Shown: positions 5,510 through 64,000 of the stretch, piece after piece
How the letters are laid out: each line of letters opens with the position of its first letter
How positions within the stretch are numbered: position 1 is the first letter of the stretch
Position numbers and translations under genes: made by a program
IMG/VR virus record: IMGVR_UViG_3300045241_000115
Location: 1 to 64,000 of that record
Strand: one strand, 5' to 3'
DNA from: a virus
Length of the DNA stretch: 64,000 nucleotides
The notes under the pieces: model-generated
The model's database searches: none
What the model saw: the letters and a program-made list of their open reading frames with translations, nothing else
Told to the model about the DNA's origin: nothing

Positions 5510-6411
5510 GCGGCTTCCTCCCCTTCATCATCATCGAACGACAACAGCGACGGACGCTTGCGCTCTAGCACCGACAATTCCAGCTCGTTCTGAAAATTGC
5601 CCTGCCGCTCACCGTTGACCATGTTCATGATCTGCAGCCCCTCCTCGCTGTCCCAGTGATACATTCCGAGTTTGCGATGATCGCCGGTCGGATGATTACG
5701 GCCAATCGCTAGCCAGAACCGGTTTTTGCCAAAGGTCTGACGGCTTACCAGCCAATGTCTGCGCTTGAGTTTCGTGCGAATTTCGTCCGGCGAGAGCGCC
5801 GCGAACTGTTCTTCCTTTCCCACCAGGCGGAGCTTGGAGTCTTTGCCTTGCGCCTGTGAGTACCATCGATAATTTATGTTGAGGATGATATCGATCTTCA
5901 GGAATTCTTCAGCGAACTGGATGACTTCATCGACCGGCACGCCACCGCCGCCATTCTTGGCGCGGTAGAACCAGGCGTTGGGATCGCAGAGCAGACTGCC
6001 CAGCGCGTGCTGCGGCCTGTCGCGCCGACGCACCTGTTCGGCGAACCGCCCGATGACCGACTTATTATCCTCGCAGAGCAGCGAGAGGCCGGATTGCGGC
6101 AAATGACCGTAATGGACTAGCCAATGTTCCAACTTAGCGATCGCAGCGGCGTCGTAATCGCAGAACCAGGCATAGACCGGCATTGCGGTAAGTTGGCGCT
6201 GCGCCAGCTCACAGAACACCATTGGCGAGCCAGGACATCCGGCGATTTCATTCCAGCCCGAACCGGCATTGAGATCGAGATGGAAATACGGCCGCGTCTG
6301 ACGCCATGCGTTTTTCTTGGCCCAGAAGTTGGCCATTCTCATGCCGATCGACTCTGCCGATCCGATTTTGCGCTCTTTGTCGAGCGTGCCGTCTCCCTGT
6401 CCCTGCTTCAC
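5506..6411 (-). CDS. Three-Cys-motif partner protein (TcmP-like, SAM-binding fold)
   Basis: HLDLNAGSG, GSP and LCDPN motifs; adjacent to DUF5131, its usual partner. Confidence 0.7.
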   Translation of the reverse strand: MKQGQGDGTLDKERKIGSAESIGMRMANFWAKKNAWRQTRPYFHLDLNAGSGWNEIAGCPGSPMVFCELAQRQLTAMPVYAWFCDYDAAAIAKLEHWLVHYGHLPQSGLSLLCEDNKSVIGRFAEQVRRRDRPQHALGSLLCDPNAWFYRAKNGGGGVPVDEVIQFAEEFLKIDIILNINYRWYSQAQGKDSKLRLVGKEEQFAALSPDEIRTKLKRRHWLVSRQTFGKNRFWLAIGRNHPTGDHRKLGMYHWDSEEGLQIMNMVNGERQGNFQNELELSVLERKRPSLLSFDDDEGEEAA

Positions 6412-6629
6412 AGCGTTTCCCCCTCATCCATCATTGGCAGCGTGCGCGCGACCAGCACGCCGCCGCGGCGCCGCGGATTGGCTTTCAGAGCCAATCGATG
6501 TCGCTTGCCGATCACCGCCCGCACCGTGACACCGAGGCGGTCGGCGATCTCGGGATCCGTCAGCCCCTCGCGCACCAGCCGGCGCAGCGAGGCGGTACGC
6601 TCGTCGGACCACAGATTGTCCCAGGGCAT
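6408..6629 (-). CDS. GcrA-like HTH regulator
   Basis: WSDERTASLRRLVREGLTDPEIADRLGVTVRAVIGKRHRL matches the GcrA N-terminus. Confidence 0.8.
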   Translation of the reverse strand: MPWDNLWSDERTASLRRLVREGLTDPEIADRLGVTVRAVIGKRHRLALKANPRRRGGVLVARTLPMMDEGETL

Positions 6630-7192
6630 CAGTTCACCCCCGCGAACAGCGGACCGGCGGCCGGACGGATGCCGAGCCGTTGGCGGCAGTACCAAAGCCA
6701 CAGCAGCGCAGAGTCGCCCGCGTTATGGTCCGGCACACGCCAGCCCATGCGCAGGCAATGCCTCAGCACCTCGCGTTTGACGGTGTCCTTGGCGAAATAG
6801 CGCCGGCCCATGATGTCCGCGCGCACCGTGCCGGGATCGACCTCGAAGATCGGGATGCTGGCGTTCCACGCCTCCATGCGCGCGATGCCGCGCAGGGTGA
6901 GCTGCTGGGCGGTGATCATCAGCGAAGTGTGGGCGGGCAGCGGCAGCGGCGCTTCCAGCACGAGCTGCGCCGGCGCCATGCGTTCGATCGCGTCGATCAT
7001 CCAGTCGTCGAACGCGAGATAGCGCGCGTCCTCGGTCGGCTCCCGCAGCCAGACCGAGCCATAGTGTGGCTTCGGATCGCCGATCAGGCCGTAGGTCCAA
7101 CCGAAGGTGCGGGCGAGGTCGAGGGCGAGGATGCCGCCAGAGCGAAAATTGGGTGCGGCCGCGAGGGCCGCCTGCTGGGCGGGTCGCGACAC
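6629..7192 (-). CDS. RuvC-like Holliday junction resolvase
   Basis: ILALDLA..GW, LVLEAP, HNAGDS acidic motifs. Confidence 0.75.
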   Translation of the reverse strand: MSRPAQQAALAAAPNFRSGGILALDLARTFGWTYGLIGDPKPHYGSVWLREPTEDARYLAFDDWMIDAIERMAPAQLVLEAPLPLPAHTSLMITAQQLTLRGIARMEAWNASIPIFEVDPGTVRADIMGRRYFAKDTVKREVLRHCLRMGWRVPDHNAGDSALLWLWYCRQRLGIRPAAGPLFAGVN

Positions 7193-9134: not shown

Positions 9135-9677
9135 ATGCCCAAACACACTGCCGCCGTGCCCATTCAACCACCCTCGCGGTTCGCCGTGCAGCGCGCCCTG
9201 GCCGTGCTGCGTGGCGTCCGCGAGGCCCTGATCGCCGACGATCCCTCCATCGCCGACGACCCCAGGCTGATGACAGATATGCTCGATGGCGAGGGTGGCA
9301 ATGCTCTCGACATCATCGCCGACGACGTGCGCGCCGCCATCGAGGCCGAGGCGTTGGCCGACATCGCGCGCAAGCGGGCCGCCGAGCTGTACGAACGGGC
9401 CAACCGGCTGGACCGGCGCTGCGACACGTTGAAGCGCGGCGTCCGCGACGTGCTGCTCGAACTCGGCCTCCCCAGGCTGGAACGCGACGACTTCACCGCC
9501 TCGGTCAACAAAGGCTACCGCCACGTCATCGTCACCGGCCCCTACCCCGATGAATACGCGCGCATCACCCGCGAACCCAAGAAGAAGGAGATGAAGGAGG
9601 CGCTCGACGCCGGCAAGGATCTGCCCTTCGCCTCGCTGTCCAACCCGGAACCCGGCCTGACGGTGAGGACAAGCTGA
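9135..9677 (+). CDS. Siphovirus Gp157 family protein
   Basis: Coiled coil then FTASV..PDEY..EPKKKEMKEALDAG..FASLSN..LTVRT; strong RBS. Confidence 0.8.
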   Translation: MPKHTAAVPIQPPSRFAVQRALAVLRGVREALIADDPSIADDPRLMTDMLDGEGGNALDIIADDVRAAIEAEALADIARKRAAELYERANRLDRRCDTLKRGVRDVLLELGLPRLERDDFTASVNKGYRHVIVTGPYPDEYARITREPKKKEMKEALDAGKDLPFASLSNPEPGLTVRTS

Positions 9678-10990
9678 TGAGCGAGCAAGCCACAGTCACC
9701 AAGACCCGGGCGAAGGCAAATCGGGTCGCCGGCACCGGAACCCTGGTCAAGACCAACGGCAACGGCCACCCCCCGGCGCCGATCGATCTGCCCGAGGACT
9801 TCCTGCTCCGCATCGCGCGCGACACGACGATAGACGCCGACAAGCTGCGCGCGGTCGCGGACGTCTATGTCACCATGCAGGAGAAACAGCGCGCATGGGT
9901 CCGCGAGGACGACAAGGAACGCGCCCGGGTCGCCTACTTCGCCGCCAAACCCGCGATGCAGGCCGAGTTGCCGGTACTCGAGAAAACCACGCCAAACCAG
10001 GAGGGAAAGGGCAAGTACCTCGACTACGGCGAGTTGTGGGAGACGTGCTGCCCGATCTGGACCAAGCACGGTTTCACGGTCGCCTTCGACATCGTGCCGA
10101 CCGATAACGGACTGATCCGCGTCAAGCTGATCCTTGATCATACAGCGGGCCATCGCGAGACCTTTCTGGCGCCCGACACGCCACCCGACACGGCTGGGCC
10201 AAAAGGCACACCCAACAAAACGGTCCCGCAGGGCAATCAAGCGACGATCACCTTCGTCCAGCGCGGTCTGCTGACGCGGGCTCTCGGCATCGGCATGAAA
10301 CGGGAAGAGGACGACGGCAACAGCGGCGCGACCGGCGATCATCGCGCAGCGCCGCATACAACAAGGACCGAGCGCCGGTACGCCGACGACCGCCCGCCGG
10401 TCAATTGGGTCGATAGCACCGTCGAGCTGCTCGACGCCGCGAAGACCCTGGAAGCCTGGGAGACGCGGATCATCCAGGCGTTGCGTAACCCGCCGTCCGT
10501 CACCGAGGTCGAGGACCTCAAAAGCCGGCTGCGCGCGGCGGTCAACGGCATCCACGACCGCGCGGTGCGCAATCGCATCGCCGATGCGTTCCGTGCGGCC
10601 TCGGGCAGTCTCGCGCCGTCAGCAGAGTCCAAACCCCGAAGCGCGGAAGGCGAAGACGCCGACCGGGCCGAGGCGGCGGAAGCACAAGCGGCCCTCGAAG
10701 CGCGAATGCGTTCGTCGGCGGAAGCCCTGCGGCAGTCGCGCGAAGCCAGGGCGGCATCGGGCGCGCCGGAATGGACCGCGCCACTCAGTGACGACGAGCA
10801 ATGGGCGGAGAACCAGATCAGCGATCTCTCTCTGGTCAGCGACATGAACACGTTCCTGGTGATGGCGAACGCCGCCGAGACTCAGAAGAAAATGAAGACG
10901 TTCTCCACCACCAACCGACCGCTCTACGAACGCGTGAAGGCCGCATACGAGGCTGCCCAGACGCGGATCAGCCGGGAGGCCGCGCGATGA
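9677..10990 (+). CDS. ERF family single-strand annealing protein
   Basis: AMQAELPV.K, KYLD, HTAGH, QGNQATITFVQR..L..LGI..EDDG. Confidence 0.8.
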   Translation: MSEQATVTKTRAKANRVAGTGTLVKTNGNGHPPAPIDLPEDFLLRIARDTTIDADKLRAVADVYVTMQEKQRAWVREDDKERARVAYFAAKPAMQAELPVLEKTTPNQEGKGKYLDYGELWETCCPIWTKHGFTVAFDIVPTDNGLIRVKLILDHTAGHRETFLAPDTPPDTAGPKGTPNKTVPQGNQATITFVQRGLLTRALGIGMKREEDDGNSGATGDHRAAPHTTRTERRYADDRPPVNWVDSTVELLDAAKTLEAWETRIIQALRNPPSVTEVEDLKSRLRAAVNGIHDRAVRNRIADAFRAASGSLAPSAESKPRSAEGEDADRAEAAEAQAALEARMRSSAEALRQSREARAASGAPEWTAPLSDDEQWAENQISDLSLVSDMNTFLVMANAAETQKKMKTFSTTNRPLYERVKAAYEAAQTRISREAAR

Positions 10991-11319
10991 CCGAACTTGT
11001 CGACCGGCAGTTCATGCTGTCGGCGATCCTCGCGCGCGATCCCGACGCGACAAGACTCCATCTGCGCCATCTGCAGGTGTTGGAACACGTCTGCTCCGGC
11101 AACGGCGTGCTGACATCGGCAGTGATTGCCGCCGAGCTTGACATCAGCCCGGCGCAAACGTCGCGGCTGCTCGCCAAGCTGGAGAGCCACGAAATGATCA
11201 CGCGCTCCGATCCACGTTATCGCCCGATGACGTGGGGGCCGACGGTGCGCGGCCGCGCGCTGATCATACGCCTGCGCACCTACGTCTCTGCGTGCCTGTC
11301 AACCGACCAAGCCGCCTAA
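10987..11319 (+). CDS. MarR-like winged-helix protein
   Basis: IAAELDISPAQTSRLLAKLE..TVRGRAL. Confidence 0.7.
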   Translation: MTELVDRQFMLSAILARDPDATRLHLRHLQVLEHVCSGNGVLTSAVIAAELDISPAQTSRLLAKLESHEMITRSDPRYRPMTWGPTVRGRALIIRLRTYVSACLSTDQAA

Positions 11320-11335
11320 ACAGAAAGGAACAACC

Positions 11336-12934
11336 ATGAACACGCTGAGTATCGCGCTTGAGAACCTGCGCCCCGATCCCGCCAACGCCCGTCATGTCTG
11401 CGACAACGACGTTTCCAGCCTCGCCGCCTCCATCGACCGCGTCGGCCTGTTGCAGCCCATCGTGGTGCGGCCCGACGGCGACTCCTGGCTCGTCGTCGCC
11501 GGCAACCGTCGCGTACAAGCCTGTCGTACGCTTGGTCGTACGCACATCGACGCCGTGGAATTCGCCGTGGACGAGGACCATGAGGCCGTCGCGGCGTCGG
11601 CTGCGGAAAACATGGTGCGCATGCCCATGCACCCCGTTGACACGTGGCGTGCGATGACCGCGCTGATCGATGGGGGCTACTCCCGCGAGGGTGCCGCCGA
11701 CGCGCTCGGCGTCTCCCACGTCATGGCCCGTCGCCTCGATCATCTGGGCCGCATGGCGCCGCAGCTCGTGGACGCCATCGCCACCCAGGCGGAACTGCCC
11801 CAGGCGTCGATCATGCGCACCATCGCGCTGGCCCCGACCCCGGTGCAGCAAAAGGCCCTGGCGGCCGCGAGCCGGGGCGGCAAGGTCGATTGGTGGCGCG
11901 TCGCCCAGGGCTGCGAGACCACCCGCATTCCGATGACGCGGGCGATCTTCGACACCGAGGCCGCCAGCGTCACCTTCGACGAGGACCTGTTCGCCCAGCC
12001 GGACGATGACGAGCGGTTCACCACGACCGACATCGCAGGCTTCCTCAAGGCGCAATGCGACGCGCTGGACGCCAAGGCTACGGCGTCCAAGGGGCGCATG
12101 ACCGCCTATGTCTGGTCGCGCCCCCTGCGCCTGCGCGACCGCATGCCGAAGGGATGGGCGGCGACTTACGACGACCCGCCGAAGCGGTGGAAGAAGGACG
12201 ATCCGCGTCATCTGTTCGCCAGCGTGATCGGCGAGGGCTACGAGATCGGCGCGGTCGAGTACGTCGTGGCCGCCCCCAAGGTGGACCGCCCGGCTGCTGC
12301 GGCAACGGTCGGGACCGAGACGGTGCGCGAGCGGTCGCCGATCAGCAAGATGACGATAAACCGCCTCGCGATGATGAAGCGCGAGGCCGTCGTGGAGCGT
12401 CTGCCTCTGATCGCGGCGAACGCCAACCCCTCGGACATGCTGCGCGCGCTGTTGCTCGTGCTGACCTTCGAGAATGTCAGCCTGTGGGACAGCGACCGCC
12501 GCTACGGCACCTCGCCCTATCGCGACCTCGCCCGCCATCTGGTCGATCACGAGGGAAAGCCTGTCGATCTGTCCGAGGCGCAGCTTTGCGTCCTAGCCGC
12601 CGATGCGATCGGACGCGTGGTGAAGTTCGAGGGCGCCGACATCGCCAACTCGTCCGGCCCCCAGGCCGAATGGCTGGCGGCGATGGTGGGGGCCGAGATG
12701 CCACGCTGCGACAGCGAGGAAATCCTGAAAGGGCTGACCAAGGACGCGCTGATCGAACTGGCCCGCCAGCACGGCATATCCGAGCAGGGCAAGACCGTCG
12801 AGATCAGGGGGAGGCTGATCGGACATTTGCCCGACTGGCGGCCCGCTGACTTCGGCGCCAAGGGCCCGTCCGGCTACCACTTCGAGCGGGAGCAGGCCGA
12901 CGACGAGTCCGACGATGCGGAGGAGGCTGCGTGA
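11336..12934 (+). CDS. ParB/RepB/Spo0J family protein
   Basis: SLAASIDRVGLLQPIVVR, AGNRR, AENMVR. Confidence 0.85.
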   Translation: MNTLSIALENLRPDPANARHVCDNDVSSLAASIDRVGLLQPIVVRPDGDSWLVVAGNRRVQACRTLGRTHIDAVEFAVDEDHEAVAASAAENMVRMPMHPVDTWRAMTALIDGGYSREGAADALGVSHVMARRLDHLGRMAPQLVDAIATQAELPQASIMRTIALAPTPVQQKALAAASRGGKVDWWRVAQGCETTRIPMTRAIFDTEAASVTFDEDLFAQPDDDERFTTTDIAGFLKAQCDALDAKATASKGRMTAYVWSRPLRLRDRMPKGWAATYDDPPKRWKKDDPRHLFASVIGEGYEIGAVEYVVAAPKVDRPAAAATVGTETVRERSPISKMTINRLAMMKREAVVERLPLIAANANPSDMLRALLLVLTFENVSLWDSDRRYGTSPYRDLARHLVDHEGKPVDLSEAQLCVLAADAIGRVVKFEGADIANSSGPQAEWLAAMVGAEMPRCDSEEILKGLTKDALIELARQHGISEQGKTVEIRGRLIGHLPDWRPADFGAKGPSGYHFEREQADDESDDAEEAA

Positions 12935-13128
12935 TGGGCGAGGCAGTCGAGGACATATTGGACGGACTCGCATGCGAGGTTTGCGGAGTGTGGTTCGATG
13001 ACGTGCTGGACGGGGGCGAGCCGCCCGGTCACCCGCGACGATGCGAACAATGCGAACCGACCCGGCCACAAAGCCGGGAGCGCAATCGCAAGGAACGACG
13101 ACGCCGGCTGGCGGCGAGGCCGACATGA
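12931..13128 (+). CDS. Small Cys-rich hypothetical protein
   Basis: CEVC...CEQC; GGAGG RBS. Confidence 0.6.
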   Translation: MMGEAVEDILDGLACEVCGVWFDDVLDGGEPPGHPRRCEQCEPTRPQSRERNRKERRRRLAARPT

Positions 13129-13316
13129 GCGGCATCGGCAGGGTGCCGGCGTGGTGGCTCACGCTGACGGGCATCTCGGCGAGCGCCGCGCTCGAACTGC
13201 TGCGCGCGGTCGAGCGCCGCGGCGTCTCCAAGAACGACCGCCGGGAGGTCGAGCGCATCTGGCACGCGTTGCGCATTGATCAGGCCATCGAGAAGACCTT
13301 GGGAGGAGCGCCATGA
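13125..13316 (+). CDS. Hypothetical protein
   Basis: ATGA coupling at both ends. Confidence 0.55.
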   Translation: MSGIGRVPAWWLTLTGISASAALELLRAVERRGVSKNDRREVERIWHALRIDQAIEKTLGGAP

Positions 13317-13531
13317 GTCAAACTGAACTGGTGCCGATCGACCTGCCGGAGATGATCGGCGAAGTGCGGCGCGAACTGAACTACCGCCAGCGCGCCTATC
13401 CGCAGTGGGTGTCCGAAGGGAAACTCAACTCACGGATGGCGGCTCGTCAGATCGACCGGATGGAAGCGGTCCTGAACCTTCTGATTGATCTGAATGGACC
13501 ATCGCGTCCGCAGGCGCGGCGGGCGGCGTAA
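13313..13531 (+). CDS. Conserved phage hypothetical protein
   Basis: EVRRELNYRQRAYPQWV..GKL motif; GGAGGAG RBS. Confidence 0.7.
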   Translation: MSQTELVPIDLPEMIGEVRRELNYRQRAYPQWVSEGKLNSRMAARQIDRMEAVLNLLIDLNGPSRPQARRAA

Positions 13532-13895
13532 GCAGTGGGCGTCGGGGGAATGCCGTCAGCCATCTGGCGAGTTCCCCCGACAGCCTGTTCAACTGCCCGG
13601 CCGGCACCGGGCGTCCTCGCACCTGCGACAGGCGCTCTGCCAACGTCAGCCAATTGGATAGATCCTCGAGCGAAAGGCCGGTCAGCATTGGCGTTTCGCG
13701 GGGCAATTCCCCTGGCGCCTCGATCTCTCCCAAGTCCTGGCCGCGCTCGGCTGCGACATAAGCGCGGATCGCCTGCCCGACCCATTCGGCAACCGTCGCG
13801 TCCTGCCGCCGCGCCGCCGCGAGCGCCGCCGCGCGGTCCGCTTCGTCCATGTCTCGGATCGTCCAATGCGACGCCACGGTATCCCCGTACGACAT
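13425..13895 (-). CDS. Ribbon-helix-helix-like protein
   Basis: WTIRDMD..AAARRQDATVAEWVGQAIR; start uncertain. Confidence 0.55.
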   Translation of the reverse strand: MSYGDTVASHWTIRDMDEADRAAALAAARRQDATVAEWVGQAIRAYVAAERGQDLGEIEAPGELPRETPMLTGLSLEDLSNWLTLAERLSQVRGRPVPAGQLNRLSGELARWLTAFPRRPLLTPPAAPADAMVHSDQSEGSGPLPSGRSDEPPSVS

Positions 13896-14014
13896 TTTGT
13901 CGTACGCGCTCGTACAGATGTGCTACGCGTCGGGGCAAGTTACAAAAGCGACGGAACGTTCGCGCGGCTCAGGGCGGCTACCTCCCCAGGCTGACACGTC
14001 CAAGGAGTGTTGTC

Positions 14015-14380
14015 ATGAGCGGCCCGGTCTACCAGGGGCCGCTGACACGGTATGGCGATTTACCGGCGGCGAAGCTGTGGCAAGCATGGCTGCGCGCTCG
14101 GTACAAATCGCGCCGTCCTCCCGTGATCGGCGGCAAGGTCATCGCCCTGGCGCTCGCCTGTTATGGAGACTCGATGGCATGGCCGTTGACCGAGGATATC
14201 GCGGACTATTTCGGCTGTACGCAGACATCGGTGAACTCTCAGGTCGGTCTCAACGTGCGTCGCGGCCTGCTGAGTTGGCGGGGAGAGCCGCTGTACGTGA
14301 GCCGCCTGTGGTCGCCGGTCACGATCCGCTACCTCGAGCCGTCGTCGGAGGTTCGCAAAGAGAAGTTCGATGGGGTTTGA
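14015..14380 (+). CDS. HTH-like hypothetical protein
   Basis: AAGGAG RBS; TEDIADYFGCTQTSVNSQV. Confidence 0.55.
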   Translation: MSGPVYQGPLTRYGDLPAAKLWQAWLRARYKSRRPPVIGGKVIALALACYGDSMAWPLTEDIADYFGCTQTSVNSQVGLNVRRGLLSWRGEPLYVSRLWSPVTIRYLEPSSEVRKEKFDGV

Positions 14381-14412
14381 CATGAGCCGGGCGGCGGGAG
14401 TCGGATCGCCCC

Positions 14413-14637
14413 ATGCACATCATCCGGCTCCGCGATCCCGAGCGCCGCATGGCGCGCTATCACTGTCTCTGCCTGCAAGGGACGCTCTGGCGGCAGGGGG
14501 TCGCCGTCGTCCATGAGTGGGGCCGCATCGGCAGCCCGGGCACGGTCCGCAGCGAGGACCATGCCGACGAGGCGGCGGCCAGGAAGGCGGTCGCGCGATA
14601 TCTGCGCGTCAAGCGCCGGAAGGGCTACGGACCATAG
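14413..14637 (+). CDS. WGR domain protein
   Basis: MARY..LQGTL..EWGRIGSPG..KRRKGY. Confidence 0.85.
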   Translation: MHIIRLRDPERRMARYHCLCLQGTLWRQGVAVVHEWGRIGSPGTVRSEDHADEAAARKAVARYLRVKRRKGYGP

Positions 14638-14674
14638 ACCCGGTTATCGATCCAACGGGGAGTTTCAAAGGGTT

Positions 14675-14875
14675 ATGAGCGAGTATCCATGGGGATCGGG
14701 ACGCGCGAATGCACTCCGCTGGTGTGCGCTGGAAATATGTCGCAGGGAGCATCCCGCTAATCTTTGCGACGAGCCATGTGTTCGCTGCTGGCAGGGAGCG
14801 GAAGCACAGATGCTGGAGGCGCAGGAGGTTGCCCGGTCGATCCGGCGAGCGCTGATGCGCCGGAAGGCTCCATAA
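14675..14875 (+). CDS. Small Cys-rich hypothetical protein (cassette 1)
   Basis: Starts at the repeat ATG and stops at the next repeat TAA. Confidence 0.65.
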   Translation: MSEYPWGSGRANALRWCALEICRREHPANLCDEPCVRCWQGAEAQMLEAQEVARSIRRALMRRKAP

Positions 14876-14918
14876 TTGCCGACCCGGTTATCGATCCATT
14901 GAGGAGTTTCAGGAGGTT

Positions 14919-15143
14919 ATGAGTGAGCATCCCGAGCAGTATTTGGGCGACGGACTCTATGTGAGCTTCGACGGCTACCATGTGGTCCTGCGGGCACCGC
15001 GCGTGGGCGGTGATCACTTCGTTGCCCTGGAACCAGAGGTGATGATCGCGTTTCAAGCATACCTCACGGCTTTGGCTCGTAAGCATCCGGAACTGCAAAC
15101 GCGATGGAATATGATGCGTGAGGCTGACCGCAAGACACCATAA
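14919..15143 (+). CDS. Conserved phage hypothetical protein (cassette 2)
   Basis: YLGDGLYVSFDGYHVVL..ALEPEV; AGGAGG RBS. Confidence 0.75.
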   Translation: MSEHPEQYLGDGLYVSFDGYHVVLRAPRVGGDHFVALEPEVMIAFQAYLTALARKHPELQTRWNMMREADRKTP

Positions 15144-15186
15144 TTGCCGACCCGGTTATCGTGCCAATGAGGAGTTTCAAAGGGTT

Positions 15187-15396
15187 ATGAGAGAGGTGCA
15201 TGGCGTGGCTTACGCACACAAAGTCACCATGTCGGAGGCGGAAAGCGAGACTCAAAATGTGCTCGTCACGGATGACGGAACCGGAATCCGGCTGACGCTC
15301 ACTGCTTGCTCGTATCCGGCGCGGCTCACTCCCGAGGAGGCTCGGTTCATAGCGCAGGCGCTCACGGAGGCAGCCGATCGCTGCAAGGCACCATAA
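15187..15396 (+). CDS. Hypothetical protein (cassette 3)
   Basis: Bounded by repeats; LTPEEARFIAQAL motif; alternative GTG start at 15205. Confidence 0.65.
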   Translation: MREVHGVAYAHKVTMSEAESETQNVLVTDDGTGIRLTLTACSYPARLTPEEARFIAQALTEAADRCKAP

Positions 15397-15441
15397 TAGC
15401 CAATATCGTCCCTTCGGGTCGGTGAGGAGGGTTTCGCCACA

Positions 15442-15681
15442 ATGATCAAGGCAATCGCGCACGGCGCCAACGGTCGCAAAATCCTGGTGCTCGGCCTGAG
15501 CTTCGGCGATCTCCGCGAGGCGCCCGGCGACACGTTCATCCGCGTCGTCGACGGCAAGGAAATGGGGCTGGACATGGACGTGATGATTATCTCCGGCGAG
15601 ACCGAGGCGCATATGGCGGAAACGCTGGCCGGCATCGGGCCGGATACCAAGGTCCACGTCAGTCCACGCTCGAGGAGTTAA
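15442..15681 (+). CDS. Hypothetical protein
   Basis: GAGGAGG RBS; MIKA..ILVLGLS..GETE. Confidence 0.7.
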   Translation: MIKAIAHGANGRKILVLGLSFGDLREAPGDTFIRVVDGKEMGLDMDVMIISGETEAHMAETLAGIGPDTKVHVSPRSRS

Positions 15682-15686
15682 AGACC

Positions 15687-16034
15687 GTGAACGATAATGA
15701 CTTTCTACAATGGCTGCACGAGGCTAGCGGTTATCACTTCCCGACTGAGCTGCCCGGCGGGCGCTACGCCTGCATCAACCGGCGCTGGCACAACACACAG
15801 GTCATCACGGGCCGGATGGGAGATCGCACCGGGTTTGCTGACGCTTGGTGATACGATTCCCCCGAGCATGCCCTGGCAGGGCTGCTGGAATGGCTGGGCC
15901 GGGAAGGGGAGGGAGAGCCTGCCGGTTGGTTCCGGCACGCAGCGTCCGGCCGGCGCGTCTCCCGCTCGCCCGATGAGCGCGATGACGCCGGCAGGCGGGT
16001 GGGCGCGGTCGGGGTGACGTATGTGCGCAGGTAA
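15687..16034 (+). CDS. 115-aa gene with an in-frame TGA at 15849-15851: selenoprotein/readthrough candidate or pseudogene
   Basis: GAGGAG RBS and GTG start; the readthrough frame fills the gap between neighbours; context ADAW*YDSP; hairpin immediately 3' of the TGA. Confidence 0.7.
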
Positions 16035-16046
16035 GGAGGAAAATGA

Positions 16047-16277
16047 ATGTCCGACGAGCCGACGGAAAGGCTGGAACTCAGGATCACGCCAGATCTTTGG
16101 CAGGCGATCGACCGTCTGGCGAAGGAAGAGGGCCGCCACATTACATCCATGGCACGCTTGCTGATCGAGCGGGGCCTATTGGCTACGGCGTCGCGACCGA
16201 AACCGCACCATTTAGTCCCTGTCGCGAACCGCTGGGGCCTGGACAAACCACGCAAAAGGCCACGCTACCCGCGATAA
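16047..16277 (+). CDS. Arc/ribbon-helix-helix protein
   Basis: RLELRITPDLWQAIDRLAKEEGRHITSMARLLIERGL; AAGGAGG RBS. Confidence 0.75.
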   Translation: MSDEPTERLELRITPDLWQAIDRLAKEEGRHITSMARLLIERGLLATASRPKPHHLVPVANRWGLDKPRKRPRYPR

Positions 16278-16450
16278 CTGGCCTTATCGCGCATAACGGA
16301 ATTTCGGAGTCCAGGATTGACCAACCTGATCTGGGCCGTGATCCTCGGAGGGGCCGCTGGGCTCTATATCGGGGCCGCGTTCGGATGGGCCTTCAAGGAG
16401 TGACGCCATGCCAGACAGGACGATCCTCGAGCAGGCCAAGGTGCCGACGA

Positions 16451-16702
16451 ATGGCTGAGGGGCAGAGCCGGGACGAAATGGCCGTCGAGCGCGCGGTCGA
16501 GAGCCTGTATCGCGTCCTCGAGTTCCGCCGATGGGTGCAGAGCAACGTGCTGTTCCCGACCGTTCCCGACACCGTCGTTCACCCGCTGCTGGACCATCTG
16601 CGCGAGGCCGAGCACAGGCTTCTCGCCGCCCTTTATGACCGCGACGCCCTCGACCGCGTGGCAGCAATCAACCGGACGCTCGCTCGGCCCGGGAAAGTGT
16701 GA
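16451..16702 (+). CDS. Hypothetical protein
   Basis: Plausible helical ORF ending at a convergent terminator. Confidence 0.5.
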   Translation: MAEGQSRDEMAVERAVESLYRVLEFRRWVQSNVLFPTVPDTVVHPLLDHLREAEHRLLAALYDRDALDRVAAINRTLARPGKV

Positions 16703-16705
16703 ATG

Positions 16706-16733
16706 AAAAAAGGCCCCGACGGGGTGCGGGGCC
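16706..16733 (-). terminator. Intrinsic terminator of the late operon
   Basis: Minus strand GGCCCCG-loop-CGGGGCC-TTTTTT at the convergence point. Confidence 0.75.
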
Positions 16734-16762
16734 AGGGAGTTCCTTTCAGGGTGAGGGCGATC

Positions 16763-16951
16763 TTAGCCGCGGATTACCTGCACCCACTGATGACGATTGA
16801 GCGACACGACGCGATCGACGCCGGTCGCGTCGTTGTGCAACGCAACATCGATCCGTCGCGGCATGTACGAATTGTCGATCGCGGTCACGCGCTCGCCGGC
16901 AATCTTGTCGCCGATCGCGAGCAGCCGCGCCTCGACGGTAACGGTGCTCAT
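16763..16951 (-). CDS. Hypothetical protein
   Basis: ATGA-coupled. Confidence 0.55.
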   Translation of the reverse strand: MSTVTVEARLLAIGDKIAGERVTAIDNSYMPRRIDVALHNDATGVDRVVSLNRHQWVQVIRG

Positions 16952-17163
16952 GCGGTCCGGGCCGGCTCGGGCATCTGGCCGCCCTGGCTCTGCGCCAACT
17001 GCTGCTGGTAGAGCTGGATCTGCGCGGTCGCCTGGTTGCGCAGCTCCATGATCAGATCGGCGACGGTCTCGAACGGCTGCTTGCCGATGATCGCGAGCAC
17101 CATGTTGGCCTGCGCCATCGGCAGCGTCCAGGTGATTTCAGGCTCGGGGGGACGGGTTGTCAT
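16948..17163 (-). CDS. Small fibre-associated hypothetical protein
   Basis: AAGGAG RBS; ANMVLAIIGKQPFETVADLI. Confidence 0.65.
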   Translation of the reverse strand: MTTRPPEPEITWTLPMAQANMVLAIIGKQPFETVADLIMELRNQATAQIQLYQQQLAQSQGGQMPEPARTA

Positions 17164-17247
17164 GCGGTTCTCCTTGGCTGTGGTCAACGCAAAGCGCCCC
17201 GCGTCCGCGAGGACGCAGGGCGGCGACGGCGGGTGTGTCAGAACCGG

Positions 17248-17544
17248 TTAGAAACGCCTGGGCTGCGGGAGGGACTCTGGGCGAAGCAGCGGGCGAGGCT
17301 CTGGGATGGTTTCGACCGCCTGATGCTGTGGCGGTGTCGTGTCCTTCCTGATGTGCGGGCCCGGCAGGTCGGGCGGATCGGGCGGCGGCGCTATCGGCGC
17401 ATCGACCACCCTTGGGTCGGGCTGCCACGCGTGTTCGATGATGACCATCGGCTCCGGCGACTCCCGTTTGGCATCGAGATCGGTCGGCGGCGTCGGCACA
17501 TCGGCCGCGTGCAAGAGTGGTGGGTCGGGTTCGGGTTCAGCCAT
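17248..17544 (-). CDS. Proline-rich hypothetical protein
   Basis: Overlaps the fibre stop; AAAGGA RBS. Confidence 0.55.
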   Translation of the reverse strand: MAEPEPDPPLLHAADVPTPPTDLDAKRESPEPMVIIEHAWQPDPRVVDAPIAPPPDPPDLPGPHIRKDTTPPQHQAVETIPEPRPLLRPESLPQPRRF

Positions 17545-61083: not shown

Positions 61084-61152
61084 GACGAAACACGGCGCGT
61101 TGCGTCGTGTCCGTCGGCGCCTGCCCCTCCCGACGCTGATGAGTCAGGGGCA
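61084..61152 (+). ncRNA. Type II hammerhead ribozyme with pseudoknot
   Basis: GAC-GAAA-stem III-GUC(61111)-CGUCGG/CCGACG-CUGAUGA-GUC; loop UGCCCCU pairs with AGGGGCA. Confidence 0.92.
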
Positions 61153-61171
61153 AACAGAAAGGAACAACCCT

Positions 61172-61342
61172 ATGCGCAAGCAAATCGAGACGATGAAGAC
61201 GAAGCTGCAGACGATGCTCGCCCGCGCCGAAGAGAAGGCCGACAGCGAGAACGAGACGGTCGGCGACAAGTACGCCGCCGTCATGGACGGTCTGCAAACC
61301 GCGCTCGACGGCCTGGACGAAGCGTTGCTCGCATTTGAATGA
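61172..61342 (+). CDS. Small acidic helical early protein
   Basis: Conserved RBS; stop codon overlaps the next ribozyme. Confidence 0.7.
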   Translation: MRKQIETMKTKLQTMLARAEEKADSENETVGDKYAAVMDGLQTALDGLDEALLAFE

Positions 61343-61415
61343 CGAAACGCGCGGTGGATGAGACATCGCGCGTCTGCATGGAACCCCGCCCATCCTGCAC
61401 TGATGAGTCAGGGCG
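61340..61415 (+). ncRNA. Type II hammerhead ribozyme with pseudoknot
   Basis: UGAC-GAAA-CGCGCGGUG/CAUCGCGCG-UC(61374)-UGCA..UGCA-CUGAUGA-GUCA; CGCCC pairs with GGGCG. Confidence 0.92.
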
Positions 61416-61434
61416 AACAGAAAGGAACATCACA

Positions 61435-61737
61435 ATGCCAAAGACCACAATCATGCTCAAGGCCGACGTTGCGCAGCGCAAGGCGCGTCATACGTGCCCC
61501 CAGTACGATCAATTCAAGAAGCCATCGCGCAAGGCGTCCAGAGCGAAGATTGATCCGACGACAACCGCCGAGGCGGATCAGGCGATCTACGAGGCCGCAC
61601 TGAGTCAGGTACGCGAGGCGATGCGCCGCTTCGCCGGCCCGCATGCGTCCAAACGCCAGCTCAAAGAGATCGACGCGGCGCTGAGCGAGGCATTCGGGCA
61701 ACTCGACGCCATCGCGTACGATCTTGTTTGCATGTGA
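61435..61737 (+). CDS. Hypothetical early protein
   Basis: Conserved RBS; stop codon overlaps the next ribozyme. Confidence 0.7.
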   Translation: MPKTTIMLKADVAQRKARHTCPQYDQFKKPSRKASRAKIDPTTTAEADQAIYEAALSQVREAMRRFAGPHASKRQLKEIDAALSEAFGQLDAIAYDLVCM

Positions 61738-61806
61738 CGAAACGCGGCGCGCGCAGCGCTGCGTCTGCACGGACCTGCCCCACCCTGCACTGATGAGTCA
61801 GGGGCA
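61735..61806 (+). ncRNA. Type II hammerhead ribozyme with pseudoknot
   Basis: UGAC-GAAA-CGCGGCGC/GCGCUGCG-UC(61765)-UGCA..UGCA-CUGAUGA-GUCA; UGCCCC pairs with GGGGCA. Confidence 0.92.
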
Positions 61807-61823
61807 ACAGAAAGGAACAACCC

Positions 61824-62018
61824 ATGCCTAAGTTTCGTATCTCATACGAGATCGAATGCGAGGCCGCCAACGCTGCCGAAGCGTTGGAGGGCTTTTTGTC
61901 GTCCGGCCACGTTCACGAGGAAGAGTGGACGGTGACGCGGGTTCATCCGCGGCCATCGTCTGTCATCGTGACGGCGCGCAACCCGCGCAAAATACGGCGT
62001 GACGGAGCGACGCGATGA
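61824..62018 (+). CDS. Hypothetical early protein
   Basis: Conserved RBS. Confidence 0.7.
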   Translation: MPKFRISYEIECEAANAAEALEGFLSSGHVHEEEWTVTRVHPRPSSVIVTARNPRKIRRDGATR

Positions 62019-63096: not shown

Positions 63097-63130
63097 TGAT
63101 GGTACAGGGCTAAACAGAAGGGAACACCGA

Positions 63131-64000
63131 ATGGCGAGAGAGTTTCTCACGTTGAAGCAATTGCGCGAGAGGACCTGGAAGAACCAAGACGAGGCTATTC
63201 TGGATCTGAAACGCGCGGGGCTGAAGCCGGTCGGCACCGACTATGTGCTGGGCGAGCATACGCCCGGCAGCAAGGTCTGGCAGTTGCTGGACCGCACGGA
63301 CGCCGATGGTTCGCAAGAGCCGCCGACGGCCAAGCCGGCGAAGGCCGCGAAGGCTCCCAAGAAGACGGCCAAGTCCGAACATCCGGGTGACGCCGACATG
63401 AAAGCCAAGGCCGCGAAGGCGACCGGCTATGACGTTCACTTCCGAGTCAGTCCGACCAAGAAGTTGAACGAGCAGGCCGACACGTTGGAGGCGGCCCGTG
63501 CGATCGCCGCGCGCATGAATGCCGAACACGGCAAGAATGGGCGACGTGCGATGATCTACGCGCGACAGGCGAAGGGTCCGTCCATCCCGATCACAGGCGA
63601 CGATCCGCCTGTGACGAAGGTGGCGGAGAAGGTGAAGGGCGCGAAGGCGAAGCCCGCCGATGCGCCGGAGCCGGAGCCTGCGCCGGAGCCTGCGAAGCCT
63701 GCCGAGCCGGCCAACGACATGACGCCGTTGCCGGCGGCCAACGGGCCGTACAACTTCCGTCTCGATCAGCCGCCGGCGCAGCATTCGCTGTTGCCGACGG
63801 CGCTCGAATGGTCGCGCAAGACCGGCTTCGTCGTGGCGATCATCGACAAGGCCGGCAACGTCGTGCGCAAGATCGACGGCCGGCTGGGCGGCAAACGTCC
63901 TACGCGCACGGCGACGCGCGTGGCAACGCGCACCCCCCGCGCACCGCAGGGCGAGGGCAAGATGGCCACCGCCACGCGGCTGCTGATGCGTCCCGAGGGC
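63131..64000 (+). CDS. Lys/Ala/Pro-rich protein; runs off the right edge
   Basis: Manual translation MAREFLTLKQ..; ends KMATATRLLMRPEG (DUF3489-like start); conserved RBS. Confidence 0.7.
   Translation, partial: MAREFLTLKQLRERTWKNQDEAILDLKRAGLKPVGTDYVLGEHTPGSKVWQLLDRTDADGSQEPPTAKPAKAAKAPKKTAKSEHPGDADMKAKAAKATGYDVHFRVSPTKKLNEQADTLEAARAIAARMNAEHGKNGRRAMIYARQAKGPSIPITGDDPPVTKVAEKVKGAKAKPADAPEPEPAPEPAKPAEPANDMTPLPAANGPYNFRLDQPPAQHSLLPTALEWSRKTGFVVAIIDKAGNVVRKIDGRLGGKRPTRTATRVATRTPRAPQGEGKMATATRLLMRPEG

Follow-up and report, generated by a model that had tools for sequence, protein, structure and literature searches.

Five short repeats, hereafter sites 1 to 5, occupy the junctions of a run of small genes (positions 14413 to 16450) in the first 64 kb of the IMG/VR virus record IMGVR_UViG_3300045241_000115; this whole stretch of 64,000 nucleotides (nt) is referred to as the window. 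The record is 73,959 bp long, has a G+C content of about 63% and is rated complete by CheckV. It belongs to a tailed soil phage, with genes for sheath, baseplate, tape measure, portal and terminase, an Erf-like annealing protein and two ParB-like proteins. No close DNA relative of this phage was found in the phage collection. An alphaproteobacterial host is suggested by a GcrA-like gene (6408-6701, minus strand), whose small product is 66% identical to that of L001:783-995 (minus strand), the sole gene common to both (L numbers designate loci from other genomes). The sites and the genes around them are listed in Table 1.

Table 1. Sites and genes in and around the repeat array (window positions; aa, amino acids; GC3, G+C content at third codon positions; ORF, open reading frame)
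Feature	Position	Strand	Remarks
Erf-like gene	9677-10990		
WGR-domain gene, 74 aa	14413-14637	+	upstream edge of array; Pfam PF05406, 2.4e-10
Site 1	14628-14677	+	left arm 14628-14637 with TAG stop of WGR gene; spacer ACCCGG 14638-14643; right arm TTATCGATCC 14644-14653; GGAG-bearing tail to ATG at 14675
Cassette gene 1, 66 aa	14675-14875	+	no family; GC3 0.63
Site 2	14866-14921	+	left arm 14866-14875 (TAA stop of cassette gene 1); 12-nt spacer 14876-14887; right arm 14888-14897; tail to ATG at 14919
Cassette gene 2, 74 aa	14919-15143	+	many phage homologues; weak phrog_11545; GC3 0.63
Site 3	15134-15189	+	left arm 15134-15143 (TAA stop of cassette gene 2); 12-nt spacer identical to that of site 2; right arm 15156-15165; tail to ATG at 15187
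Cassette gene 3, 69 aa	15187-15396	+	no family; GC3 0.67
Site 4, diverged	15387-15444	+	left arm 15387-15396 (TAA stop of cassette gene 3); spacer TAGCCA; right arm ATATCGTCCC 15403-15412; longer tail with GAGGAGG to ATG at 15442
Arc-like ribbon-helix-helix gene	16047-16277	+	stop inside site 5; phrog_3431, 3.4e-9
Site 5, near-canonical	16268-16319	+	CGCGATAA-CTGGCC-TTATCGCG, core 16268-16293; contains TAA stop of Arc-like gene; tail ..GGAATTTCGGAG, then TTG start at 16317
Possible hydrophobic ORF, 28 aa	16317-16403	+	putative, sequence read by eye; start from site 5 tail

A repeat search recovered a 68-nt repeat in three copies (14616-14683, 14860-14927 and 15128-15195; 72 to 100% identity to the reference copy) and a 19-nt repeat family that adds a fourth position (15383-15401). 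The right-hand 23-mer had three matches at up to 3 mismatches, compared to none in 100 shuffles. A scan of the whole 73,959-bp genome gave no additional copies of these repeats. Sites 4 and 5 truly belong to the set, although they have diverged, and the tail of site 5 is identical to that of one copy in a distant relative, L004.

Each of the five sites spans the interval from a stop codon to the following start, in gene orientation, among small early genes. The stops of the five upstream genes all fall within the ATAA or ATAG of a left arm, which encodes the last two codons and the stop; the tail supplies the downstream gene with a Shine-Dalgarno sequence and a start, GGAG standing 12 to 13 nt ahead of the ATG in the copies. 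The intergenic gaps (37, 43, 43, 45 and 39 nt) are wholly occupied by the element, and the array as a whole consists of promoterless units of one ORF in a single orientation, with the site at the 3' end. An initial annotation, made from the letters of the window, had placed five sites at these positions with the stops in their left arms, had attributed the similar protein ends to the repeat and had seen the next ATG supplied by the first three sites. The repeat search and the gene coordinates bear this out: the proteins ending at sites 1 to 5 have the C-termini GP, KAP, KTP, KAP and, as an addition to that description, PR, and sites 1 to 3 continue into GGAGTTTCA..GGTTATGAG, the source of the next ATG.

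Sites 1, 4 and 5 have a spacer of 6 nt, sites 2 and 3 one of 12 nt. To the same annotation, the 12-nt spacer had looked like the 6-bp cores of the flanking sites joined together. Its second half is indeed the spacer of site 1, and its first half agrees with the spacer of site 4 at four of six positions; the resemblance of the halves stands, and the joining itself is conjecture. The 12-nt spacers could have arisen where a left and a right half-site met, each bringing its own spacer; separate half-sites of that sort exist in the phage locus L239 (see below). In 11 copies, drawn from five phages, 7 to 9 of the 10 arm positions pair across the spacer. In an alignment of eight copies, 73.6% of the cells were paired, compared to 25 to 39% when the partner was slid.

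The perfect form of site 5, GCGCGATAA-N6-TTATCGCGC (18 specified bases), was used as a search query, for which about 17 chance matches were estimated in the genome collection and about one in the viral collection. Bacterial stretches with the perfect palindrome numbered at least 120, and viral contigs 23. Among Alphaproteobacteria and phages the palindrome is longer, CTAC..GTAG, and an asymmetric tail, TGGAATT.., comes after it, the family form being CTAC-GCGCGATAA-N6-TTATCGCGC-GTAG plus asymmetric tail (13-6-13). Compared with a family profile built from 34 independent sites, site 5 gave E = 4e-7, with the plus orientation preferred; after one iteration the value was 5.4e-10, which is not independent, site 5 being among the four sequences added. 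By its sequence, site 5 is a member of this recombinase-associated 13-6-13 family.

The association is as follows. Using L103:4303-5343 as a query, a recombinase homologue was found in 46 of the 120 bacterial stretches among the matches listed; in 34 of these 46 it lay at most 250 nt from the site, and the site was usually 0 to 100 nt upstream of the start. This adjacency holds in both Acetobacteraceae and Dehalococcoidia. In Gemmatimonadota, Longimicrobiales and Vicinamibacterales the gene is flanked by two inverted sites. Such inverted-site units (L115:4040-5296, L177:4274-5493, L120, L130 and L133, with one alphaproteobacterial metagenome-assembled genome among them) contain a recombinase gene of about 0.9 kb and reverse-complementary spacers within a total of about 1.2 kb; a unit of this kind is, on its layout, a minimal 'recombinase in a box'. 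The recombinase carries the domains PF00589 (Phage_integrase) and PF02899 (SAM-like). Among solved structures, Cre is its best relative, the alignment covering nearly the full length; matches to XerC, XerD and XerA are weak and far below the cut-offs of the XerC/XerD equivalogs. At E <= 1e-10 the family takes in at least 2,565 database proteins, all under generic names. Across phyla, the recombinase is the only conserved neighbour of the site, with no helix-turn-helix (HTH) gene in that position. None of the papers searched has the two arm sequences together in a relevant context.

Several lineages show local particularities. In Acetobacteraceae, a small gene with HTH and DnaJ domains is divergent from the site and the recombinase gene (L103:3769-4158; also L193, L117, L215, L245, L252 and L253). 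The Dehalococcoidia loci (L097, L101, L106, L118, L137, L144, L156, L163 and others) have different, strongly conserved flanks, ..CTTGCGCACGCCCGTTCGCC / site / ATCTTTTACCCGCCGAAATCGCC..; these palindromes lie upstream of a distant recombinase homologue and occur in several copies per chromosome. In L192 / L244:4377 and L141 (two genomes), the site and tail precede an smc-like gene rather than a recombinase gene and are accompanied by a promoter-like TTGCC-N17-GAGGCT/AATGCT.

Phage loci differ from the bacterial ones in this respect: none of the 23 viral loci had the recombinase, compared to the 46 of 120 bacterial loci, and a PF00589 gene of any kind was present in 4 of 27 site-bearing viral records. 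Four site-bearing viral records without the recombinase were scanned whole and contained one perfect site each. In many phage loci the upstream ORF ends in ..AR* within the left arm, as at site 5.

The remaining sites of the window are connected to the family through L004. The L004 copies matched the family profile at 1.7e-7 and 5.8e-5, and a profile made from sites 1 to 3 and L001 found L022 at 5e-4 and the L004 copy L4b at 3e-3. L4b is the one matched by both profiles (5.8e-5 with that of the family). Sites 1 to 4 are reached only via this copy, and their family membership is therefore transitive. A likeness between the tail of sites 1 to 4 and the bacterial tail, GGAGTT.TCAAAGGGTT as against GGAATTATTTGGGTT, was read by eye. 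The initial annotation had called all the repeats tyrosine-recombinase-like; this applies to site 5 directly, and would extend to sites 1 to 4 only by way of L4b.

Traces of recombination were found at family sites in other genomes. One Acidiphilium genome has 10 sites, compared to none for a reversed control pattern; three adjoin a recombinase gene and seven adjoin other small modules, one of which looks like a BrnA-type antitoxin. All ten share a common right arm and about 30 to 45 nt of tail, and their left and distal right flanks combine differently (L247 and L251, for instance, agree at 96% on the left and at 58% on the distal right). The complete phage from which L239 derives has a single full site and, besides it, three half-sites (one left, two right); G(T/A)GCGN is the spacer in all of them. 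Its homology with L217 (97.5% over 158 nt) is bounded, within 1 nt, at the edge between spacer and right arm; that with L231 likewise starts at this edge, and at the left half-site divergence sets in immediately past the spacer. Breakpoints of the crossover type are thus seen at the spacer in this other phage. In an all-against-all BLAST of site-bearing viral loci, 2 of 146 internal ends of high-scoring segment pairs lay near a site; therefore the evidence for crossovers in phages comes from the comparisons of L239 with L217 and L231.

The element itself recurs elsewhere with unrelated genes on its two sides: L001 has a copy 88% like site 1, L004 has three or four copies, and L022 has one. The pattern of sites 1 to 3 had no match in genome contigs or metagenome contigs and one true match in viral contigs, L001; L002 was rejected as a carrier, its match being due to chance. 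At L022:7132-7200, a copy of the site 1 type follows the upstream gene's own TAG stop, and the downstream start has decayed, reading GGGCTTAGCGAG where GGGTTATGAGCGAG is expected, so that this is a fossil junction. In L004, an 18-nt direct repeat, CACGCCTAGTGGAATTAG, identical to the site-family tail, surrounds (14138-14172 / 14643-14660) a gene of 158 aa without Pfam match (14175-14651), which looks as though it had been inserted into a site copy.

The WGR homologue is kept in three relatives, L003, L008 and L016 (43 to 47% identity in ParB), where it ends in a 4-nt ATGA stop/start overlap without a site, and different genes come after it. Homologues of cassette gene 2 likewise end, at many of their downstream junctions, in ATGA overlaps of the form ..CCATGAGCGA. 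This common junction accounts for the final P of the proteins here and for the MSE with which the following ones begin. The element looks like an insertion into an ATGA-type stop/start junction. Cassette genes 1 to 3 have a GC3 of 0.63 to 0.67, compared to 0.87 for the WGR gene and 0.84 for 15442-15681; other genes of the same operon are likewise low, at 0.70 to 0.71. The low values of the three cassette genes would be consistent with a later arrival. The rightward operon ends at 16702, just before a GC-rich hairpin with a T-run (16712-16733, minus strand) that closes convergent leftward genes.

Our preferred reading, to which we give a little less than an even chance, is that the five repeats would be sites, or fossil sites, used by a Cre/Xer-like recombinase in trans for the insertion of single-gene modules. 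The repeats would have a lox/dif-like core, with arms of about 9 to 13 bp around a 6-bp spacer, and an asymmetric tail of 20 to 30 nt; in bacteria, this site family goes together with a single family of tyrosine recombinases of the Cre/Xer-like type. An enzyme provided by the host, a resident plasmid or a mobile element may have inserted or exchanged single-gene modules at the sites, and we infer that such exchange built the array of WGR, gene 1, gene 2 and gene 3. Site 5 still looks usable; sites 1 to 4, diverged or composite (half-site plus half-site), would today probably serve mainly as intercistronic linkers. A broader proposal is tentative and rather doubtful: that tailed phages of soil Alphaproteobacteria (probably with Acetobacteraceae-like hosts) use orphan sites of a widespread, uncharacterised family of Cre-like recombinases, encoded on host plasmids or small mobile elements, as an integron-like platform. 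Single genes, each with a terminal site providing its stop and the ribosome site of its successor, would then pass between phages and plasmids, the enzyme never being encoded by the phage.

A number of observations weigh against an origin by recombination. Sites 1 to 4 are not reached directly by the family profile (best E = 5.3, for site 1). Sites 1, 4 and 5 differ in spacer and therefore could not recombine together, and the 12-nt spacers make sites 2 and 3 unusable, as they stand, by a tyrosine recombinase. The initial annotation had seen no recombinase in the window, and the remaining 10 kb are also without one: the 74-kb genome lacks recombinases of the tyrosine and serine classes, and likewise protelomerases and Y1 transposases (PF00589, PF00239, PF16684 and PF01797). 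A search of IMG/VR, sensitive to close relatives only, gave no close relative of the bacterial recombinase. That annotation had also suggested a check of whether gene content and order in related phages vary exactly at the junctions; relatives do have other genes after WGR, as said above, but no site is present there, nor at either end of the cassette gene 2 homologues in about 80 viral loci. Contigs of the likely source sample (Logan assembly, one run) show a single arrangement of the stretch; no alternative junctions were found among them, and rare variants could escape assembled contigs. Finally, the conserved ribosome-site tail and the placement exact to the reading frame fit a translational role equally well.

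Such a role is the basis of the strongest rival, which we judge rather unlikely. It makes the element a pure linker at the level of expression, setting termination and re-initiation or mRNA processing and stability in the manner proposed for the start-associated repeats of Cluster K mycobacteriophages, any shuffling of genes proceeding by homology with Erf-like help. The stop-to-start course of every copy and the regular position of GGAG agree with this, as does an architecture of imperfect inverted repeats, variable spacer and start-proximal motif that matches the extended start-associated sequence (ESAS) and its start-associated sequence (SAS) (PMC3203893). Covariation of the arms is mild (score 0.119, compared to 0.065 in shuffles; 12 of 500 shuffles scored at least as high), and for the homology part of the proposal the phage has its Erf-like gene, with a precedent in the promoter early stem-loops (PeSLs) of T4-type phages (PMC2839356). 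The RNA itself argues the other way. Folds of six copies were no more stable than those of shuffles (z of +0.5 to +1.4), the hairpins alone are weak (-3.4 to -6.7 kcal/mol), RNAalifold gave no consensus structure for the arms, and Rfam 15 had nothing relevant at E up to 10 in 13000-17500. Nor did a pattern scan give a promoter or terminator recurring across copies: one promoter-like match lies on the opposite strand at site 3 only, and terminator-like signals are absent from sites 1 to 4, with a weak one on the opposite strand at 16260-16274, overlapping the left arm of site 5. Two motifs noticed by eye were dropped, a sigma-54-like GG-N10-GC that fits sites 2 and 4 only, and an integration host factor-like motif that fits site 2 and L001 only. 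A linker would also leave unexplained why the palindrome stands beside recombinase genes in several phyla, and why half-sites have breakpoints at the spacer edge. The linker and the recombination-site readings are compatible, as fossil sites may persist as suppliers of stop, ribosome site and start.

It is quite improbable that the repeats are operators for a dimeric DNA-binding protein (an Arc-like or HTH protein of the phage, or a host factor) blocking or tuning transcription of the operon. The stoperators of Cluster A mycobacteriophages would be a parallel, the copies are palindromic with GC-rich arms around an AT-rich core, the best of them lies at the end of the gene for an Arc-like repressor, and the Acetobacteraceae site falls in the divergent promoter region between the HTH-DnaJ gene and the recombinase gene. 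However, spacers of 6 and 12 nt place the half-sites on different faces of the helix, the neighbour conserved across phyla is the recombinase and not an HTH gene, the one gene that L001 has in common with this phage is GcrA-like, and half-sites persist in L239. The initial annotation had named host XerCD as a possible actor. Action of these enzymes at dif-like sites, in the way of integrative mobile elements exploiting Xer (IMEX) or of pdif modules, appears very improbable. The dif site comprises 28 bp, with two 11-bp arms and a 6-bp centre (PMC6449649), a geometry found in sites 1, 4 and 5 with their ATAA-N6-TTAT, but not in sites 2 and 3. The left arms, ..CGCCATAA, resemble the XerC arm of the Magnetospirillum dif (PMC2731167), and the right arm of the L022 copy reads TTATGAGAC against TTATGCGAC; a Magnetospirillum-like dif pattern reached noise level only in five candidate host genomes. 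In tabulated dif sites the XerD arm has TTATG in all but two (Caulobacter and Desulfotalea, with TTTATG) and the overall G+C content is 0.14 to 0.39 (PMC2731167), whereas 10 of the 11 copies here have TTATCG and spacers such as ACCCGG and CTGGCC are GC-rich. Lastly, similar periods (244, 268 and 253 nt) and gene lengths (66 to 74 aa) would suit remnants of a tandem duplication of one small gene and its spacer, with the spacer alone conserved. This is extremely improbable: BLASTP gave no alignment among cassette proteins 1 to 3 at E up to 100, and the three enclosed proteins, being mutually unrelated, therefore do not represent a decayed gene duplication. Gene 2, moreover, has its own widespread family, and the element lies between unrelated genes in L001, L004 and L022.

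Repetitive extragenic palindromic (REP) elements, which are defined by a Y1 transposase partner (the REP-associated tyrosine transposase, RAYT) and by tens to hundreds of copies per genome, were also considered and rejected: the phage has no PF01797 gene, bacterial genomes have 1 to 10 sites each, and the partner is a tyrosine recombinase. Other repeats are present in the window. A second start-proximal family (..AAACAGAAAGGAACA..ATG) precedes five genes (11314-11346, 61148-61180, 61411-61443, 61801-61833 and 63108-63140), and at 61095 and 61749 it comes after a block containing CTGATGAGTC. Near the left end of the record, a 25-nt unit (..TGTGCGGTTTTCCTGACAT..) is repeated four times in tandem at 328-430, in an iteron-like manner.

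The exchange of small genes of unknown function in the early regions of mosaic phages is mostly ascribed to homologous or illegitimate recombination. If the preferred reading is true, a third, site-specific route of exchange would exist for single-gene modules, and the gene pools of phages and plasmids would be linked. A large and unstudied family of simple recombinases would also come into view, whose 13-6-13 core, constant in several phyla, could serve for lox-like tools. If the repeats are linkers only, they add one more case of start-associated repeats with a function still open.

Among the closest known systems are the ESAS/SAS of Cluster K mycobacteriophages, which also consist of imperfect inverted repeats with a variable spacer (4 to 13 bp there) followed by a conserved Shine-Dalgarno and start motif; they, too, share a single orientation and are confined to the non-structural genome half, with function unproven (PMC3203893). 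The sequence is another one, making this an analogy and not a homology, and there are 11 to 19 copies genome-wide there compared to five in 1.7 kb here. We know of no link to a recombinase gene reported for ESAS. The PeSLs of T4-type phages are short conserved intergenic cassettes on either side of small non-essential ORFs, and modules are shuffled at these junctions (PMC2839356, PMC4122927), mini-circles being formed between neighbouring cassettes (PMC2839356). They differ in having a strong sigma-70 early promoter and a terminator stem-loop, neither of which recurs here, and in being driven by homology, whereas the core of the present element is a palindrome of the recombinase type.

The likeness to integrons noted in the initial annotation, which had specified a non-attC system, holds for the promoterless array of single ORFs in one orientation and for an imperfect palindrome at the 3' end, able to overlap the stop. 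It is not an integron: integrase, attI and Pc are absent, as is any tyrosine recombinase of the genome, and the sites, of about 26 bp, are much shorter than attC and have a tail that carries the next ribosome site. The inverse-core and core consensus of attC is RYYYAAC / GTTRRRY, which the arms do not fit. In Acinetobacter plasmids, many pdif sites of the ATAA-N6-TTAT type bound small accessory modules, including toxin-antitoxin modules, that are shuffled between replicons (PMC6449649). One arm is better conserved, as here, and the Acidiphilium genome looks alike; pdif, however, is bound by host XerC/XerD and resembles the chromosomal dif, whereas the present arms are unlike dif, a dedicated Cre-like recombinase accompanies the site, and the carrier is a tailed phage. 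Moreover, pdif modules are flanked by sites of alternating orientation, compared to the direct orientation of all sites here, which is a further point against XerCD.

Cre/loxP of phage P1 is unrelated in sequence and consists of one site, in contrast to the several copies and half-sites at gene junctions described here, whose phage members are orphans; the spacer of loxP is 8 bp long, compared to 6 bp. Common to both are two inverted arms of about 13 bp around a short asymmetric spacer and, in bacteria, a site adjoining the gene of a recombinase whose best solved relative is Cre itself.

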